From the NCBI GenBank assembly GCA_043808015.1, contig JAZDFI010000021.1:1-24742 (forward strand): a stretch of DNA of 24,742 nucleotides, given 5' to 3'. Below are positions 2,460 to 24,742 of the stretch, one piece after another. The notes beneath the pieces were generated by a model. It saw nothing but the letters and a program-made list of their open reading frames with translations. It was not told where the DNA came from and searched no databases. The position numbers and the translations under genes were made by a program. Position 1 is the first letter of the stretch, and each line of letters begins with the position of its first letter. This DNA is from Candidatus Aenigmatarchaeota archaeon. GTDB lineage: Archaea > Aenigmatarchaeota > Aenigmatarchaeia > QMZP01 > QMZT01.

Positions 2460-3131
2460 CTATTCCACGCCCAGCAGCTTCCTGAACAGCAGCGACGCTC
2501 CCATCATGAAAATCAGTATGTACCACGCCAGCCAGTTCAGGTAAGTCCATCCGACCAGCGGTATCGTGAACGGCAGCCTTACTGCGGTTTCCATCTTCGT
2601 CGACTTGAGGTCGAGCGGGCTCACGGCCCAGTCGACGCTGCCCATCCTTATCAGGTCACCCTTCGCATACGTCTTGTCGTCGGCGAAGTCGCCGTTGTCG
2701 TTCGCGTCTATAGTCACTTTATATTCCAGGTCGCTTATCTTATCCGTCCTTATGGTGTGGTTGAAGTCGTCGAAGGCGAAGTGCCCGGTCGCTGACGTCT
2801 CACCGGCGGGTGCAGTCTGGACAATCACGCCGCCGTATGTCTGGCTGAGAAAACCGAACGCCAGCAGGACTATGCCCAGACTTACGAACATGGGCATCAT
2901 GTTCGTGCGCATCTGCTTCTGGCTCAGCTTCATCATCTCGCTGACGTATTCATTCGCTTTTTTGACGTCCTTTTCCTTCTGCGCTTCCTTGGACTTCTCC
3001 CTGTAGAACTTCATGTCTTCCTTTATCTTGCGCATTTCTGCAGGCTTGTTGAAGACGCGATAGATCACGCTGGACACGAACGACAGCAAGAGCGTCCATA
3101 TAAGAATATCCTGGTAAGGAAGGAATATCAT
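2460..3131 (-). CDS. DUF106 / EMC3-TMCO1 (Oxa1 superfamily) membrane protein insertase
   Basis: TM1, cytoplasmic coiled coil (MRKIKEDMK...MMKLSQKQMRTNMMPM), TM2, then PFTIP..G...LNWLAWYIL...LFRKLLGV C-terminus. Lies directly after adk, as is usual in archaea. Confidence 0.9.
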   Translation of the reverse strand: MIFLPYQDILIWTLLLSFVSSVIYRVFNKPAEMRKIKEDMKFYREKSKEAQKEKDVKKANEYVSEMMKLSQKQMRTNMMPMFVSLGIVLLAFGFLSQTYGGVIVQTAPAGETSATGHFAFDDFNHTIRTDKISDLEYKVTIDANDNGDFADDKTYAKGDLIRMGSVDWAVSPLDLKSTKMETAVRLPFTIPLVGWTYLNWLAWYILIFMMGASLLFRKLLGVE

Positions 3132-20466: not shown

Positions 20467-21537
20467 TTATAATCCGCCGGCCAGCTTGTTCATGTCCGGT
20501 ATCTTGACGCAGTCGCACAGAGTTTGCCCGTGCGCCGAGCACACTTCCGCGTTCTGCATTATCTGGTCGTTGGTTATGCCCGTCACGGCCATGTCCTGCG
20601 GGAACGTTATCGCCAGCGTGAATTCGTCGCCCTGGAATTCCGTCTTCTGCAGGATGAGAACCTTGCGCCCGGTCGCGCTTTCTATGCTTGCCTTGAGCGC
20701 GTCGTCCATGTAGGCGCTCTCGCTGCCCACCATGTTTATGCCCTGGCTCATGAGTATGCGGACCGTAGACACGCAGCCCTCTGGCAGCGCCGTCCCTCCT
20801 GTTAACGCCTTGAACTGCTCGTCGCTCATGCCGAGCATCGAAGCCACGCCCTCGGTCACGCTGGGCAGGCCTTTGAAAAACAATACCGAGAAAACGATGA
20901 GGACTATTATCACGGCTATGCCACCCAGCCTGAACGGGTCTGAAAATGGCGTTTTTGCATAGTCTATCTTCTTGACCTCGCCCGTGTATGCTCCCATCAC
21001 TACGACGGCTTTCTTCGTGTCTTTCTCGAGAAGGATTTCCCAGTCCGTGTTCTTGAGATTCGCCTGTTTCGCCTTATACCCTTTCACAAGCGCCTCTGCC
21101 GTTTTTTTCACTTCGTCTTCCTTGAGCGTGGTGACCTTGCTTTTGACAAGCAGTCCCTCGAGCAGCTTGACGCGCTCCGTGAGCTTCTTCACCAGACTGG
21201 CGTCCGTTTCCTCTTTCTCGTCGCGCGTTATGAGGTAGAACGCGCCGCCAAGGACGCAGGCCGCTATTATGCCGCCGATGAACAGGTCGAGCTGTATCAT
21301 CTCGAAAATCGTGCCCTTGAAGAAGAACATGAAGCCGCGCATGGCAGTGCCGGCGAGCACGCACAGGAAGCCCGCGCCGAGCATGGCTACTATCCTTATG
21401 GCGAACGGAATTTTCTTCTTCATGCCGCGAAAAGCGAAGGAACCGAAAATCCACGAGAGAACAAAATACATCACTATCTGCGCGAGCATGAGAAGCTGGG
21501 GAAGCGTTTCCATGATGTCCGATAGCGAAAGCGCCAT
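20467..21537 (-). CDS. Hypothetical membrane protein with PepSY-like domain
   Basis: Three N-terminal TM segments and a coiled coil. LKEDEVKKTAEALVKGY...WEILLE....AVVVMGAYTGEV resembles PepSY. Then one TM and a Cys-containing C-terminal domain. Confidence 0.8.
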   Translation of the reverse strand: MALSLSDIMETLPQLLMLAQIVMYFVLSWIFGSFAFRGMKKKIPFAIRIVAMLGAGFLCVLAGTAMRGFMFFFKGTIFEMIQLDLFIGGIIAACVLGGAFYLITRDEKEETDASLVKKLTERVKLLEGLLVKSKVTTLKEDEVKKTAEALVKGYKAKQANLKNTDWEILLEKDTKKAVVVMGAYTGEVKKIDYAKTPFSDPFRLGGIAVIIVLIVFSVLFFKGLPSVTEGVASMLGMSDEQFKALTGGTALPEGCVSTVRILMSQGINMVGSESAYMDDALKASIESATGRKVLILQKTEFQGDEFTLAITFPQDMAVTGITNDQIMQNAEVCSAHGQTLCDCVKIPDMNKLAGGL

Positions 21538-21558
21538 GAATAATATTTGCAGCGCCCA

Positions 21559-21795
21559 CTATAAATTGGATATGTTGAAGAAGCCGCTCTGCAGGAGCTT
21601 GATTATCTTTTCCTCTTCGGGCATGTTCGCGGCAAGCAGCATCTTCAGGTCTTTCAGCGCTTCAGAATAAAGCGTCGTGCCGATGACGTTCGTGTCGCGC
21701 AGCTCCCATTCCTTGTCGCGTATTTTCGTGTAGATGAAGAACGCCTTGCCGTCCGTCGTGATCTTATGCTCCTGTCCCTCAAAAATAGTTTTCAT
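21559..21795 (-). CDS. Small hypothetical protein
   Basis: 78-aa ORF, co-oriented with and 21 nt upstream of the membrane protein. TTTAAA about 25-30 nt upstream. Confidence 0.7.
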   Translation of the reverse strand: MKTIFEGQEHKITTDGKAFFIYTKIRDKEWELRDTNVIGTTLYSEALKDLKMLLAANMPEEEKIIKLLQSGFFNISNL

Positions 21796-21848
21796 TATTT
21801 TCTAATTCAGTCAGCATGAATTTAAACATATGCTGTTCCAGGCTCGCC

Positions 21849-21858
21849 TTTTTAAATA
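21849..21858 (+). promoter_or_regulatory. TATA box for rps15
   Basis: tttttaaata. Would place the transcription start near 21878-21882. Confidence 0.5.
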
Positions 21859-21878
21859 CAGGCCGCCACTATAATCTC

Positions 21879-21933
21879 AAGAACAGGACAGTTCGTCAGG
21901 AACTAGCTTGTATCCGCGACAATTCTTGTTCTT
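21879..21933 (+). promoter_or_regulatory. Structured 5' leader of rps15 (candidate S15 autoregulatory RNA)
   Basis: 10-bp stem 21879-21888/21924-21933 enclosing hairpins AGTTC/GAACT and TTGT/ACAA. Confidence 0.5.
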
Positions 21934-21966
21934 ATAAAATTCCATAAAACGGAGAAAGGTGTTCAT

Positions 21967-22389
21967 ATGACAGAGACGAATGAGAACGAAAAGAAAGCGG
22001 CCAACTGGGTCGACTACAAACCCAAGGAAATCGAGGACCTTATCATAAAGTACGCGAAGCAGGGCACGACGAGCGCGCACATAGGCCTGATGCTGCGCGA
22101 CCAGTACGGCATCCCGTCCGTGAAAGCGGTCACGAAGAAAACCATCAGCCAGATACTGAAGGAAAACAAGGTCTACCCCAAGCTTCCGGAAGACATCCTG
22201 AACCTCATGAAGCGAGTCGTCGAGCTGCGCGTCCACCTGGAGCGCAACAAGAAGGACTACCAGTCGTATCGAGGTCTCGAATTGGCCGAGTCGAAAATCA
22301 GGGGCCTTGCCAAGTATTACAGGAAGAAAGGCATTCTGGCAAAGACTTGGAAATACAATTCGGAGCAGGCAAAGCTGCTAATCCGATAA
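21967..22389 (+). CDS. rps15: 30S ribosomal protein uS15 (S13e-like archaeal form)
   Basis: WV.Y...EIE.LI.K.AK.G..S..IG.MLRDQYGIPSVK, LPED..NL.KR, HL..N.KD..S.RGL...ESKIR.L.KYY, WKY. Confidence 0.96.
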   Translation: MTETNENEKKAANWVDYKPKEIEDLIIKYAKQGTTSAHIGLMLRDQYGIPSVKAVTKKTISQILKENKVYPKLPEDILNLMKRVVELRVHLERNKKDYQSYRGLELAESKIRGLAKYYRKKGILAKTWKYNSEQAKLLIR

Positions 22390-22401
22390 ACCCGAAATCA
22401 G

Positions 22402-22428
22402 CTTTGCTTTTTTCTTTTATTTTTAATA
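22402..22428 (+). terminator. Oligo-T terminator-like tract after rps15
   Basis: gctttgcttttttcttttatttttaat follows the stop. Confidence 0.4.
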
Positions 22429-22439
22429 TTGTTAAATTT

Positions 22440-23405
22440 TTATTCACTTCTTGATAGAATGTTTTCTAGCGTTAACTGTCCACCGCTACACATTTTTTCA
22501 GCAAAATGCTCTATCAAGTTTCTAACCTTTATTCTATGAAATTTTACATCATATTTATTATCATCTATTTTAGAAGCTAGACCTATCTTCTCAAAAGTTT
22601 CCATAGCTTCTTTTACGCTTTTAACACTGGGTACATCATGATTTCCGTTAGATTGCAAAGAAAATGTTTTTAATTTATTCAACAAATCGTTGACATTAAC
22701 AACCAATCGGATGATTTTTTTACCTCTAGATTCTTCTAATTGTTCATCCGTGGCTATAGAACCAAAGACATTTTGCCATAAAATAATCATTATATACAAA
22801 ATTGGCGGTTCAGCATCATAAAATTTAATATCACTAATCATTGGTTGTAAATGTTCTAGCCATATATCCACACCATTTTTCAACTTACTATGATTGTATC
22901 TAGAGTTACTCAAAAAATGTCTTAGAAATATGAAGAATCTAGTTTGGTCATTTCTAGCAAATTCTATTATATTGTATACTCTGTGAAATGGTTGTGTACT
23001 AATTTTACTTTCAATGAATTCAGACAACTCCCTACTTCTAGAAATCTGTGTCAATATTGAAATTTCATGATTATCAATTTTTTCATTTTCTGTATTCCAA
23101 CCAATTAAATCGTCATCATATTTTTTCATCTGTTCAAAACATTTTTCCATTGATTCATGTGTATGTGTTTTTGAAAAGGATTTTTTAGCTTCGACTATCA
23201 TGCCATTTGAAGTATCTAGCTGAATAACTTCATCAGGCGTAACATCTTCATTTGGTGTAATTGTATTTACAGTACTAGTTTTCATTTTTTTCCCTAAAAA
23301 ATAGTTAGCACTATGTTCAATTTTGAGGTGTTCACCTAGTGCTATCAGTGCTTGAACTGTAAGAATGTAATTATCAACTTCTTCTATTAACTTTCTCGAT
23401 TGCAT
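22440..23405 (-). CDS. Putative PD-(D/E)xK nuclease with C-terminal winged-helix-like region
   Basis: 321 aa. P57-D58-x13-E72-A-K74 followed by Q92-x3-Y96. C-terminus VNDLLNKL...VKEAMETFEKIGLASKIDDNKYDV is wHTH-like. Very AT-rich. Confidence 0.7.
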   Translation of the reverse strand: MQSRKLIEEVDNYILTVQALIALGEHLKIEHSANYFLGKKMKTSTVNTITPNEDVTPDEVIQLDTSNGMIVEAKKSFSKTHTHESMEKCFEQMKKYDDDLIGWNTENEKIDNHEISILTQISRSRELSEFIESKISTQPFHRVYNIIEFARNDQTRFFIFLRHFLSNSRYNHSKLKNGVDIWLEHLQPMISDIKFYDAEPPILYIMIILWQNVFGSIATDEQLEESRGKKIIRLVVNVNDLLNKLKTFSLQSNGNHDVPSVKSVKEAMETFEKIGLASKIDDNKYDVKFHRIKVRNLIEHFAEKMCSGGQLTLENILSRSE

Positions 23406-24502
23406 AATTCCACTTCAAAATTTTTTACGGTGCCTTCACCAAAACGCCTGAAAATTGTATCAATCATTCTATTCAATGAAGAATATGTTGATTTCAACTG
23501 TGGTATTATTGTTATTTTGTCTTCAGATAATACCTGTATGTCATATGATGAACCATCTAGGAAATCTGATAACGTTATGTGTAGGTATGGATTTGCATGA
23601 AGAACTGATATTGAACTATAAGTCATTTTTTCCATAGCTTCTATCAAATTTTTATTTCGTTCTACTGTTTCAAAAACTGGGTAATTGAATTTAATCGAAA
23701 GGGGTTTTGAACAACTTATCTTATCTTTTTCAATTCTAGACCTATTTATATACAAATTAAAGAGTCCATCTGCGAGAGATATCATGTTTTTTATAGCAAT
23801 CGCATAGAAAGTTTTAAAATTGTTCCCGCATTTGAAAACACCATCTCTTGAAATAAAGGCGTTTAAAATTAATTTTCTTTCATCATTCATCTCAAATAAA
23901 CTGAACTTTATCTTATCTACCCATAAATCATCTTCCGCGGCTTTACTGAAAACATCGATATGTGATTTAGAAGTATATGTTACTTGTGAAATTTTGCCAC
24001 GTTCTCTTGTATAAGCGACGGTTTTATCTGCAATTATTTCTCCACCAGTTAATCTTGTTAGTTCGTCTAATGTGGCTTTCAAATTGTATGACGAAAAATA
24101 AACTAGAGAAATACGTGGATAGTTTATTTCAAAAAATCTCTTAAGCGCATTATATAAAAAGTCCAATGAATCATCAGTTATAACCAAATATATATTTTTC
24201 TTCTCTGTTCTTGAAATTATGGCTTTGCCCTCTATTTCTCTTTTAGAATCTATCCTTTTTATGTGTCTTTTTAGAATAAATGAATATATAGAATCATTAC
24301 GTTGCAATGTTTTTAACTTATATTCATGATTTATCTCATTTTCGTATTTACTTATTATTTCAAATGGATTGAAATTGCACATTAAAAGAAAACCAGATAT
24401 AGGTTTTTTTGTATTGTCTAGATAACTGTTGACACTAGTAACAAGACCAGTTAAATTGCTGGACATTCTGTATATCCAATAATTACTAGGCCTGTCCACC
24501 AT
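23387..24502 (-). CDS. Hypothetical protein, partner of the putative nuclease
   Basis: 371-aa uninterrupted ORF in very AT-rich DNA, so unlikely by chance. Overlaps the downstream gene by 19 nt. No family recognised. Confidence 0.8.
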   Translation of the reverse strand: MVDRPSNYWIYRMSSNLTGLVTSVNSYLDNTKKPISGFLLMCNFNPFEIISKYENEINHEYKLKTLQRNDSIYSFILKRHIKRIDSKREIEGKAIISRTEKKNIYLVITDDSLDFLYNALKRFFEINYPRISLVYFSSYNLKATLDELTRLTGGEIIADKTVAYTRERGKISQVTYTSKSHIDVFSKAAEDDLWVDKIKFSLFEMNDERKLILNAFISRDGVFKCGNNFKTFYAIAIKNMISLADGLFNLYINRSRIEKDKISCSKPLSIKFNYPVFETVERNKNLIEAMEKMTYSSISVLHANPYLHITLSDFLDGSSYDIQVLSEDKITIIPQLKSTYSSLNRMIDTIFRRFGEGTVKNFEVELCNRES

Positions 24503-24532
24503 CTTGAGAATTCATTTTTTAGATTAAAAACC

Positions 24533-24546
24533 TATGTTTAAACATA
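24533..24546. promoter_or_regulatory. Perfect 14-bp palindrome centred on a TATA-like TTTAAA
   Basis: TATGTTTAAACATA, 31-44 nt upstream of the ATG at 24502 on the - strand. Confidence 0.45.
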
Positions 24547-24558
24547 AAATCTTGATTT

Positions 24559-24741
24559 TTACTTATTGTAGTTCTCTTTCACGTATTCTTCCAGCTTGTT
24601 CAGCGATTCCTCGAGCACGCTCATGGGCGGGAGGAACACGATGCGGAAATGGTCCGGCTTTGGATAGCCGAAGCCTGAACCGAAGACCGCGAGAATGTGT
24701 TTTTTGTACAGGACGTCCATGATGAACTCCTTGTCGTCTTT
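24559..24741 (-). CDS. 3' end of class I/II PLP-dependent aminotransferase (AlaA-like), truncated by the window edge
   Basis: Hand translation: KDDKEFIMDVLYKKHILAVFGSGFGYPKPDHFRIVFLPPMSVLEESLNKLEEYVKENYNK*. GSGF...DHFRIVFLP is typical of alanine aminotransferases. Confidence 0.8.
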   Translation of the reverse strand, partial: KDDKEFIMDVLYKKHILAVFGSGFGYPKPDHFRIVFLPPMSVLEESLNKLEEYVKENYNK

Positions 24742-24742
24742 G

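Follow-up and report, generated by a model that had tools for sequence, protein, structure and literature searches.

The 24,742-nucleotide contig JAZDFI010000021.1 of Candidatus Aenigmatarchaeota archaeon (assembly GCA_043808015.1), which was analyzed at its full length and is referred to here as the window, contains near its end an AT-rich cassette of two genes, A and B. The A-B pair is a real, horizontally mobile and tightly coupled two-subunit nuclease module, in which the binding of the two subunits and the nuclease activity are predicted. By analogy with known systems, the role we favor, at a rough probability of 0.55, would be that of a methylase-free sensor-plus-nuclease defense complex. 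The features of the cassette, in window coordinates, are the following.

22398..24556, no strand: AT-rich two-gene cassette of 2159 bp, the part of the window without a counterpart in the closest relative (blastn)
24503..24556, minus strand: upstream spacer of 54 nt, which holds the A/T box TTTTTAAT at 24523-24530
23387..24502, minus strand: gene A, partner subunit with no catalytic motif recognized (open reading frame, ORF; predicted local distance difference test score, pLDDT, of the model 92.3)
23756..24466, minus strand: A residues 13-249, double module of the TATA-binding protein (TBP) type, of the RdgC/Iml3/CENP-L kind (fold matches)
23411..23752, minus strand: A residues 251-364, KA1/TBP-like domain with conserved motifs and the predicted docking face for B (fold, conservation and complex model)
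22440..23405, minus strand: gene B, PD-(D/E)xK nuclease with a winged-helix half (ORF; model pLDDT 91.7; fold matches)
22881..23405, minus strand: B residues 1-175, restriction-endonuclease-like PD-(D/E)xK domain (fold matches)
23118..23237, minus strand: B catalytic stretch P57-D58...E72-x-K74...Q92-x3-Y96, with the D58 codon at 23232-23234
22443..22880, minus strand: B residues 176-321, FYDAEPP motif and winged helix 199-290 (predicted contact with A)

The two genes are physically linked wherever the pair was found. Of 25 loci retrieved with A from species-representative genomes, 23 have B immediately after A in the same orientation. Among the 24 loci found through B in metagenomes, A precedes B in 21 and the remaining three begin at a contig edge. 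The partner gene comes first in all 42 paired loci. With start codons set by a first-start rule, 24 of these 42 loci have a 4-nt overlap, and the overlap or gap is at most 4 nt in 41. Judged from their sequence distances, A and B co-diverge, with a Mantel r of 0.93 between the two distance matrices that was reached in none of 2000 permutations (33 non-redundant pairs). The same A-then-B order is kept in distant versions on a Halosimplex plasmid, on an Arthrobacter plasmid, in Thermotogae and in the other matching genome of the phylum. A plasmid search with B by tblastn gave no match, and the divergent Halosimplex B emerged in profile comparison, where it matches the B profile at 97.7% probability.

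The family is broadly distributed. Searched with the A profile, clusters at 50% identity gave 780 matching representatives at E<=0.001, of which 401 pass E<=1e-30. The top 150 of these 780 are 184-399 aa long and include no A-B fusion. The hosts belong to at least 14 phylum-level groups of archaea and bacteria. The archaea include Nitrosopumilus, Nanoarchaeota, Promethearchaeota, Methanoregula and Micrarchaeota, and the bacteria include Bacillota, Chitinophaga, Omnitrophota, Terriglobia, Nitrospirota, Planctomycetota, Armatimonadota, Verrucomicrobiota and Thermotogae. In 28 of 31 loci the pair has a lower GC (guanine plus cytosine) content than its flanks, with a mean difference of 7.4 points. 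Plasmid copies exist in haloarchaea and Arthrobacter, and a single locus was found in 2.9 million viral contigs.

Departures from the paired arrangement are few. Solo A genes without B occur at L004 7695-8900 and L006 7581-8903 (two Cenarchaeum metagenome-assembled genomes, MAGs). No hidden or broken B was found near these two genes in a six-frame profile search, and no solo B was seen among the loci found through A or B. The solo A in L004 adjoins a 475-aa methylase-Mrr fusion and the solo A in L006 adjoins a 1590-aa Type ISP enzyme of the Mrr type, each on the opposite strand, and A may function with other PD-(D/E)xK nucleases. Two further variants were observed. In a Nitrosopumilaceae MAG, a full pair is followed downstream, at a distance of about 1 kb, by a partial A-like ORF (L015 11082-11468, E 1.2e-13), which may be the remnant of a second cassette. 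In a metagenome contig, A is split into two overlapping ORFs (L039 3-716 and 701-1105) beside an intact B, which represents either a frameshift or a sequencing error.

The cassette in the window has the marks of a foreign insertion. The source assembly comprises 0.93 Mb in 39 contigs with an estimated completeness of 90.7%, and the window is one whole contig. In the ORF listing, A (24502..23387, 371 aa) and B (23405..22440, 321 aa) are co-oriented on the minus strand and overlap by 19 nt (23387-23405). The GC content of the cassette is 0.296 compared with 0.532 in the flanks, and it falls to 0.29-0.30 over 22501-24500 from 0.45-0.57 in the 4 kb before. On one side lies a 140-aa ORF (21967-22389) matched by Ribosomal_S15 in Pfam (E 2.8e-16); this gene and a membrane protein gene are preceded by aIF5B-like and aIF2-beta-like ORFs, as read from their translations. 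On the other side, the contig end truncates the ORF at 24559-24742, which retains the 3' portion of a class I/II aminotransferase gene and whose counterpart in the closest relative matches Aminotran_1_2 (E 1.4e-18). The cassette has room only for ORFs A and B, and the ORF listing shows no methyltransferase, ATPase or mobility gene inside 22398-24556. The A/T box TTTTTAAT stands 21-28 nt ahead of the ATG of gene A and, from its sequence, is a candidate archaeal TATA box with a possible promoter role. A scan for bacterial-type promoters, which is uninformative for archaea, stayed at chance level (14 compared with 12.7 expected) and gave no terminator.

Comparison with the closest relative, whose S15 is 97% identical, locates the insertion exactly. 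By blastn, window positions 20467-22397 correspond to positions 2-1931 of the relative's contig (L055) at 92.5% identity, and 24557-24741 correspond to 2922-3107, also at 92.5%. In that relative the slot between rps15 and the aminotransferase gene (1932-2921) measures 990 bp and holds a 299-aa radical-SAM gene on the opposite strand. The slot is occupied by a 292-aa ORF in a second species of the genus, likewise a radical-SAM gene on the opposite strand. The radical-SAM gene has no orthologue in the assembled part of this genome, only paralogues at 31-35% identity. This slot is strain-variable. The cassette borders carry no integrase, transposase or tRNA gene, and the flanking repeats are short AT-rich chance repeats only. 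B was not detected in 40 relatives of the order, an absence that is not proven because these genomes are 71-96% complete, and it is present in two of 371 genomes of the phylum, this genome included. A chimeric contig end was rejected, because host-like DNA matching the relative resumes beyond the cassette. A housekeeping role was likewise rejected on the distribution in the order and the phylum. The GC contrast, the patchy distribution and the swapped slot show that the cassette was acquired horizontally.

Protein B is the predicted nuclease. P57-D58 is followed after 13 residues by E72-A73-K74 and then by Q92-M-K-K-Y96. The QxxxY motif defines the RecB-like subgroup of PD-(D/E)xK, and NucS carries the motif set D...ExK...QxxxY. 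Nine homologues of B and 17 of A were found. Residues P57, D58, Y96, D197 and P200 are invariant in 45 B sequences, and conservation in this set is at least 90% at E72, K74, Q92, D97, L100, G102 and W103; the invariant FYDAEPP motif contributes Y196, D197 and P200. The Q of QxxxY is displaced in two of the first ten B sequences. In the model, D58 immediately precedes strand 59-62, strand 67-74 holds both E72 and K74, and helix 82-96 carries Q92 and Y96 at its end. As modeled, B has a restriction-endonuclease-like alpha-beta-beta-beta-alpha-beta core with its catalytic residues on the expected strands, in the canonical PD-(D/E)xK geometry with a RecB-type QxxxY.

The fold matches of the nuclease domain are restriction or repair nucleases throughout. 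In structure alignment, B 9-171 matches PaqCI residues 2-163 (Z 9.0, 136 aligned, root-mean-square deviation (rmsd) 4.0), and the domain further matches XisH-like 2okf (Z 8.6, 124 aligned, rmsd 3.2), AF1548 (Z 7.5), the nuclease domain of NucS (Z 7.4, 102 aligned, 17% identity) and Can2, the LlaBIII Mrr domain and BglII (Z 6.6-7.0). On its own, Foldseek found only weak matches for B (best E 5.5e-3). These model-based matches and the motif suggest that B has nuclease activity. B shares the core fold and the motif order of NucS/EndoMS and RecB-type nucleases, but it lacks the N-terminal domain of NucS and a PCNA-type partner and instead has a winged-helix half and an obligate partner gene. It is also patchily distributed, unlike the housekeeping NucS/EndoMS. 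Residues 199-290 match the winged-helix domains of GntR, Vps25 and Z-alpha (Z 6.5-7.7, rmsd 2.1-2.9, 60-70 aligned). There is a weaker likeness to JetB/MukE, which fits a protein-binding winged helix. This half of B may not be a DNA reader, because it docks onto A in the complex model.

Protein A has no Pfam family at E<=1, and its model is confident (predicted template modeling score, pTM, 0.91). Since A combines an RdgC/Iml3-like double module with a KA1/TBP-like domain, it consists of three TBP-type alpha/beta domains. With VIA-align, A 13-249 matches Iml3 (Z 8.9, 176 aligned, rmsd 6.0), CENP-L (Z 8.3, 198 aligned, rmsd 5.6) and RdgC (Z 7.5, 195 aligned, rmsd 5.2), and the region of about 250-364 matches KA1 domains (Z 9.7, 88 aligned, rmsd 2.3). 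Foldseek gave RdgC at a probability of 1.00 with a template modeling (TM) score of 0.30-0.35, and phage RdgC-like "recombination-associated" proteins resemble the N-terminal module with E down to 1e-6. RdgC and Iml3/CENP-L thus have the double TBP-type arrangement of A but not its third domain, and the fit is poor (rmsd 5-9 Å). A has no match to the Pfam RdgC family, which we take to be PF04381. In addition, the first 243 residues of A are structurally similar to the N-terminal parts of Pseudomonadota DEAD/ResIII helicases about 660-700 aa in length (ESM Atlas, TM 0.41-0.43 by query), and from these predicted models the RdgC/Iml3-like module may also exist fused to helicases. DNA binding by A is a plausible property of the modeled fold.

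Conservation in A rises toward the C-terminus. Residues 1-112 have the lowest conservation in A (0.32) and contain no position that reaches 90%, residues 113-250 average 0.38, and residues 251-364 reach 0.55, with 21 of 113 positions conserved at 90% or more. The conserved positions of this third domain include S299, V300, H302, N304, P305, Y306, H308, D313, D316, S318, P334, Q335, E356 and G357. The best-conserved motif of the whole pair, S-V-x-H-x-N-P-Y-x-H...D..D-G-S, occupies A 299-318 together with 356-357 (window about 23432-23608). Its His/Asn/Asp residues could form a metal- or ligand-binding site or a second active site.

The complex model supports the binding of A to B, as a prediction. 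The interaction prediction score from aligned errors (ipSAE) was 0.84 in three of three runs, compared with 0.00 for the best of three controls. At least 86% of the contacts were common to the runs, and the partner pLDDT was at least 81. Among solved complexes, 58 of 80 attain this ipSAE mark, as do 2 of 110 mismatched pairs, a rough calibration since our own alignments were used. The predicted interface is formed on the A side by the third domain (256-337 and 362-364) and on the B side by 182-229, 244-247 and 290-299, plus 10-14 and 151-157. Of the 26 positions of A conserved at 90% or more, 11 fall in the interface; N304, D313, S318, E356 and G357 are not accounted for by it. The active-site residues of B are absent from the listed contacts.

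A sequence-only reading of this DNA had anticipated a large part of these results. It had described two co-oriented ORFs with a 19-nt overlap in AT-rich DNA between rps15 and an aminotransferase gene, on which the ORF listing, GC content and Pfam agree. The PD-x13-EAK and QMKKY motifs that it reported in B are present as stated, and what it called a helix-helix-wing C-terminus is the winged helix of B. Its proposal of horizontal acquisition is borne out by the GC contrast, the rarity in relatives and the swapped slot. It had also singled out the conservation of D58, E72, K74, Q92 and Y96 and the co-occurrence of the two genes as points on which the idea would stand or fall, and had proposed a modeled complex as a check; all three came out in its favor.

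That reading had further called the pair a candidate undescribed system, and here the outcome was divided. Pfam, NCBIfam, PADLOC and PHROGs gave no significant match for A or B to a defense system or a housekeeping family, in agreement with its view that the pair cannot be assigned to a named system. The Pfam scan used a local copy without the PF25924 and PF27326 models, and PADLOC-DB 2.0.0 dates from 2023, with later systems outside its coverage. The best PADLOC matches, AbiEi for A (E 0.012) and PDC-M09A for B (E 0.062), are far from significance, and these two and the other weak library matches (DUF4194, DpnI_C and phrog_8100) were rejected as below any cut-off. A sequence search of solved structures gave only chance-level eS17 for A (E 0.028 or worse) and nothing for B. 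A full-text literature search for MJECL33, MJECL32 and AF_0896/AF0896 returned unrelated accession-number coincidences only, and a full-text search for papers linking RdgC-like proteins to defense found none. The pair is therefore absent from the searched defense databases, but "undescribed" is too strong because its structure-level relatives PF25924 and PF27326 are catalogued in Pfam, without a function.

These relatives, PF25924 (MJECL33) and PF27326 (MJECL32), are an uncharacterized Pfam pair encoded by adjacent genes on the large extrachromosomal element of Methanocaldococcus jannaschii (L051 40122-41339 and 38825-40141, minus strand), beside a VapC pair. Which gene is MJECL33 and which is MJECL32 was taken from gene order, with PF25924 confirmed on the family of the upstream protein only. 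As in A-B, a protein of about 400 aa is encoded upstream of a larger PD-x-ExK-type protein, here with a 20-nt overlap. In the ESM Atlas, A has the three-domain fold of clusters in which 19-79% of members carry PF25924 (TM 0.70-0.83 over 323-345 residues, predicted models on both sides), and its neighbors also include clusters with PF27341; B resembles a cluster with 30% PF27326 members at a feature score of 0.94. The sequence comparison is much weaker. With hhalign the A and MJECL33 families are collinear over 299 columns, but at E 0.013 and a probability of 3.4%, and only TPD..E.K of B aligns with the single downstream M. jannaschii protein (22 columns, E 0.0098). A precomputed PF25924 match is present in none of the 17 A homologues and in all 13 MJECL33 homologues. 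The conserved motifs also differ, being H-x-NPY-x-H...DGSS-x-D in the A family and DLHNGD...KGSCGNTALR in MJECL33. A sequence-profile search of the M. jannaschii element gave no match at E<=10, and no member of the MJECL33 family was found in viral contigs. From the predicted structures, A-B is a divergent branch of a structurally defined, Pfam-catalogued and uncharacterized superfamily, with a borderline sequence link. The comparison names a fold and not a mechanism, because neither family has a known function.

In the role that we favor, the two-subunit complex would move between archaea and bacteria as one unit and would defend its host against viruses or plasmids. B would be the effector, a PD-(D/E)xK DNase of the RecB/NucS type, with its C-terminal winged-helix half clamped on the conserved C-terminal KA1/TBP-like domain of A. 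The fast-evolving N-terminal RdgC/Iml3-like module of A would be the likely sensor or targeting part. By binding DNA or some other mark of an invader, A would license or position the nuclease, in a sensor-plus-effector design like that of GAPS4.

By this analogy of design, GAPS4 is the nearest system with a tested function (Nucleic Acids Res 2026, PMC13748975). There GAPS4 is an anti-phage system of a PD-(D/E)xK subunit, GAPS4a, and a partner, GAPS4b, predicted to encircle DNA; the complex is 2:2 with a mass of 160.8 kDa, about 80 kDa per a+b pair. Both genes are required, the system is triggered by DNA damage or ends, and the survey covered bacterial genomes, with 1651 homologues (PMC13748975). 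A-B was compared with this published description of the GAPS4 proteins. On that basis the two systems are alike in having two genes, no methylase, a nuclease with a non-catalytic partner and a similar size (692 aa here). They differ in several respects. GAPS4a is described with a non-canonical HGxD-SxK motif, whereas B has the canonical PD58...E72-A-K74 and QxxxY. The nuclease gene of GAPS4 comes first or is fused as a-b, whereas the partner gene comes first in A-B. GAPS4a is reported to dock on helical globular domains of GAPS4b, whereas here a beta-sheet KA1-like domain of A meets the winged-helix half of B in the model. One neighbor cluster of A in the ESM Atlas has 23% PF26110 (GAPS4b_N) members, at TM 0.44-0.45 with 212 aligned; a common fold of A and GAPS4b is not established because TM is below 0.5.

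The genes around the pair at other loci were also analyzed. The scan covered 196 non-redundant ORFs from 39 loci that encode 150 aa or more and lie up to 5 kb from the pair, in halves of 99 and 97; the ORF calls are crude, and filters dropped 86 of 282 deduplicated ORFs. The commonest families were N6_Mtase (4), N6_N4_Mtase (3), Eco57I (3) and ResIII (2 and 3), followed by Mrr_cat, NACHT, AAA_21 and SNF2 (2 each). PADLOC assigned a methyltransferase model (mad2) to 8 of 99 neighbors in one half and DrmD-like helicases to 2 of 97 in the other. No integrase or transposase family reaches two members in either half. A third conserved gene was rejected, as the largest neighbor cluster spans five loci only. 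In 4 of the 42 paired loci the ORF called next to the pair encodes a DNA methylase, which lies 147 nt upstream on the other strand in L007 and 43-67 nt downstream in L009, L023 and L046. The solo A in L004 likewise has a methylase ORF as its immediate neighbor, on the other strand and 249 nt upstream. The description of the module as methylase-free, made in the sequence-only reading, thus holds in this genome and in most loci, but not in these four full-pair loci or beside that solo A. As a separate observation, in a Verrucomicrobiota MAG (L023 10160-11875) and a metagenome contig (L046 9078-10793) an N6_N4 methylase follows the pair by 43 nt on the same strand, two further genes shared by the two loci follow the methylase, and PLD/SNF2 helicases lie upstream. 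These surroundings look like a larger defense island or a composite system.

Several results weigh against the defense complex as we have drawn it. First, none of the 17 best-conserved positions of B lies in the predicted interface, and the conservation of the B interface is 0.40 compared with 0.46 for the rest of B. Secondly, the strongest conservation of the pair is at H302, N304, H308, D313 and D316 of A, which the interface explains only in part, and A may hold a site or activity of its own outside the favored model. Third, the likeness to RdgC is at the level of the fold only (TM 0.30-0.35, rmsd 5-9 Å), and TBP-type domains also mediate protein-protein contacts, for example in Iml3/CENP-L and KA1. 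Lastly, the earlier suggestion of an anti-virus module agrees with the restriction-modification, NACHT or helicase-nuclease neighbors within 5 kb in at least 12 of 39 loci, but this tally is a raw count without a background rate and is suggestive as context only, and many other neighbors have housekeeping functions (for example ATP synthase, PolB, gyrase and AdoHcyase).

Other functions were weighed against the same evidence. One is that the pair is an addiction or toxin-antitoxin-like selfish module, in which a toxic nuclease B is restrained by A and the pair stabilizes plasmids or islands by killing cells that have lost it, with the sensing of invaders not its primary task. The genes are closely coupled in translation and the putative inhibitor precedes the toxin, the usual order for antitoxins, which is consistent with this, as are the plasmid copies in haloarchaea and Arthrobacter, the position of the structural cousins MJECL33/32 beside a VapC pair, the confident predicted interface and the absence of a recombinase traveling with the cassette. 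However, A and B are far larger than typical type II pairs, and the variable N-terminal module of A would have no role. In the model A covers the winged-helix half of B, and occlusion of the active site is not predicted because the active-site residues are not among the contacts. Solo A genes with no solo B are, taken alone, the opposite of the orphan-antitoxin expectation. GAPS4, the closest analogue, is reportedly not toxin-antitoxin-like in its behavior (PMC13748975). We consider an addiction module unlikely.

A two-subunit restriction enzyme, in which A would read a sequence or modification and B would cut, appears about equally improbable. It could be modification-dependent and type IV-like, with no need of a methylase, or type II with its methylase elsewhere. 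The best fold matches of B (PaqCI, BglII, the LlaBIII Mrr domain and MspJI) point in this direction, as do the methylases beside four pairs and the solo A in L004, the high rank of methyltransferase families in the neighbor tallies and the Mrr-type enzymes that adjoin solo A genes. Against it, a cognate methyltransferase beside the endonuclease, which characterizes type II restriction-modification, is found neither in the cassette nor beside most pairs. The adjacent methylases are of differing families (N6_N4 and Eco57I-type), as expected for independent systems in an island, and no SRA, EVE or YTH domain was found in A by Pfam or among the listed fold matches.

A recombination or repair accessory of mobile elements, in which an RdgC-like DNA binder and a NucS/RecB-like nuclease would process ends or junctions, would suit the likeness of the N-terminal module of A to RdgC and phage RdgC-like proteins, the likeness of B to NucS and Holliday-junction resolvase folds and the presence of the cassette, without a recombinase, in a slot that holds another cassette in relatives, but it is very unlikely given the single locus in 2.9 million viral contigs, the lack of a linked replication or integration gene or of any third gene family in more than five loci, and neighbors that are of the restriction type and not recombination genes.

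A more specific version of the sensor-plus-nuclease defense complex can be put forward tentatively, and taken as a whole it is doubtful. The pair would found an archaeal and bacterial defense family as a sister branch of MJECL33/32; an RdgC-like clamp of the TBP type would sense free or aberrant DNA and unleash a RecB-type nuclease tethered to the third domain; the design would be an independent invention of GAPS4 logic; and the cassette would have entered this tiny DPANN-type genome by exchange at a strain-variable slot between two conserved genes, without a recombinase.

If the proposed defense role is correct, A-B would be a compact methylase-free nuclease system whose partner fold, RdgC/Iml3-like with a KA1-like domain, is not so far known from defense. 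Its breadth is considerable, with 780 clusters and hosts that include DPANN, Asgard, Nitrososphaeria, methanogens and haloarchaeal plasmids. The role would assign a function to MJECL33 and MJECL32, which are currently names only. The pair would also join GAPS4, for which a DNA-clamp-plus-nuclease logic has been proposed, as another example of that logic with a different structure. For the host itself, the swap of a radical-SAM gene and this cassette between flanks that are 92.5% identical, with no recombinase, represents an exchange of accessory genes in very small archaeal genomes.

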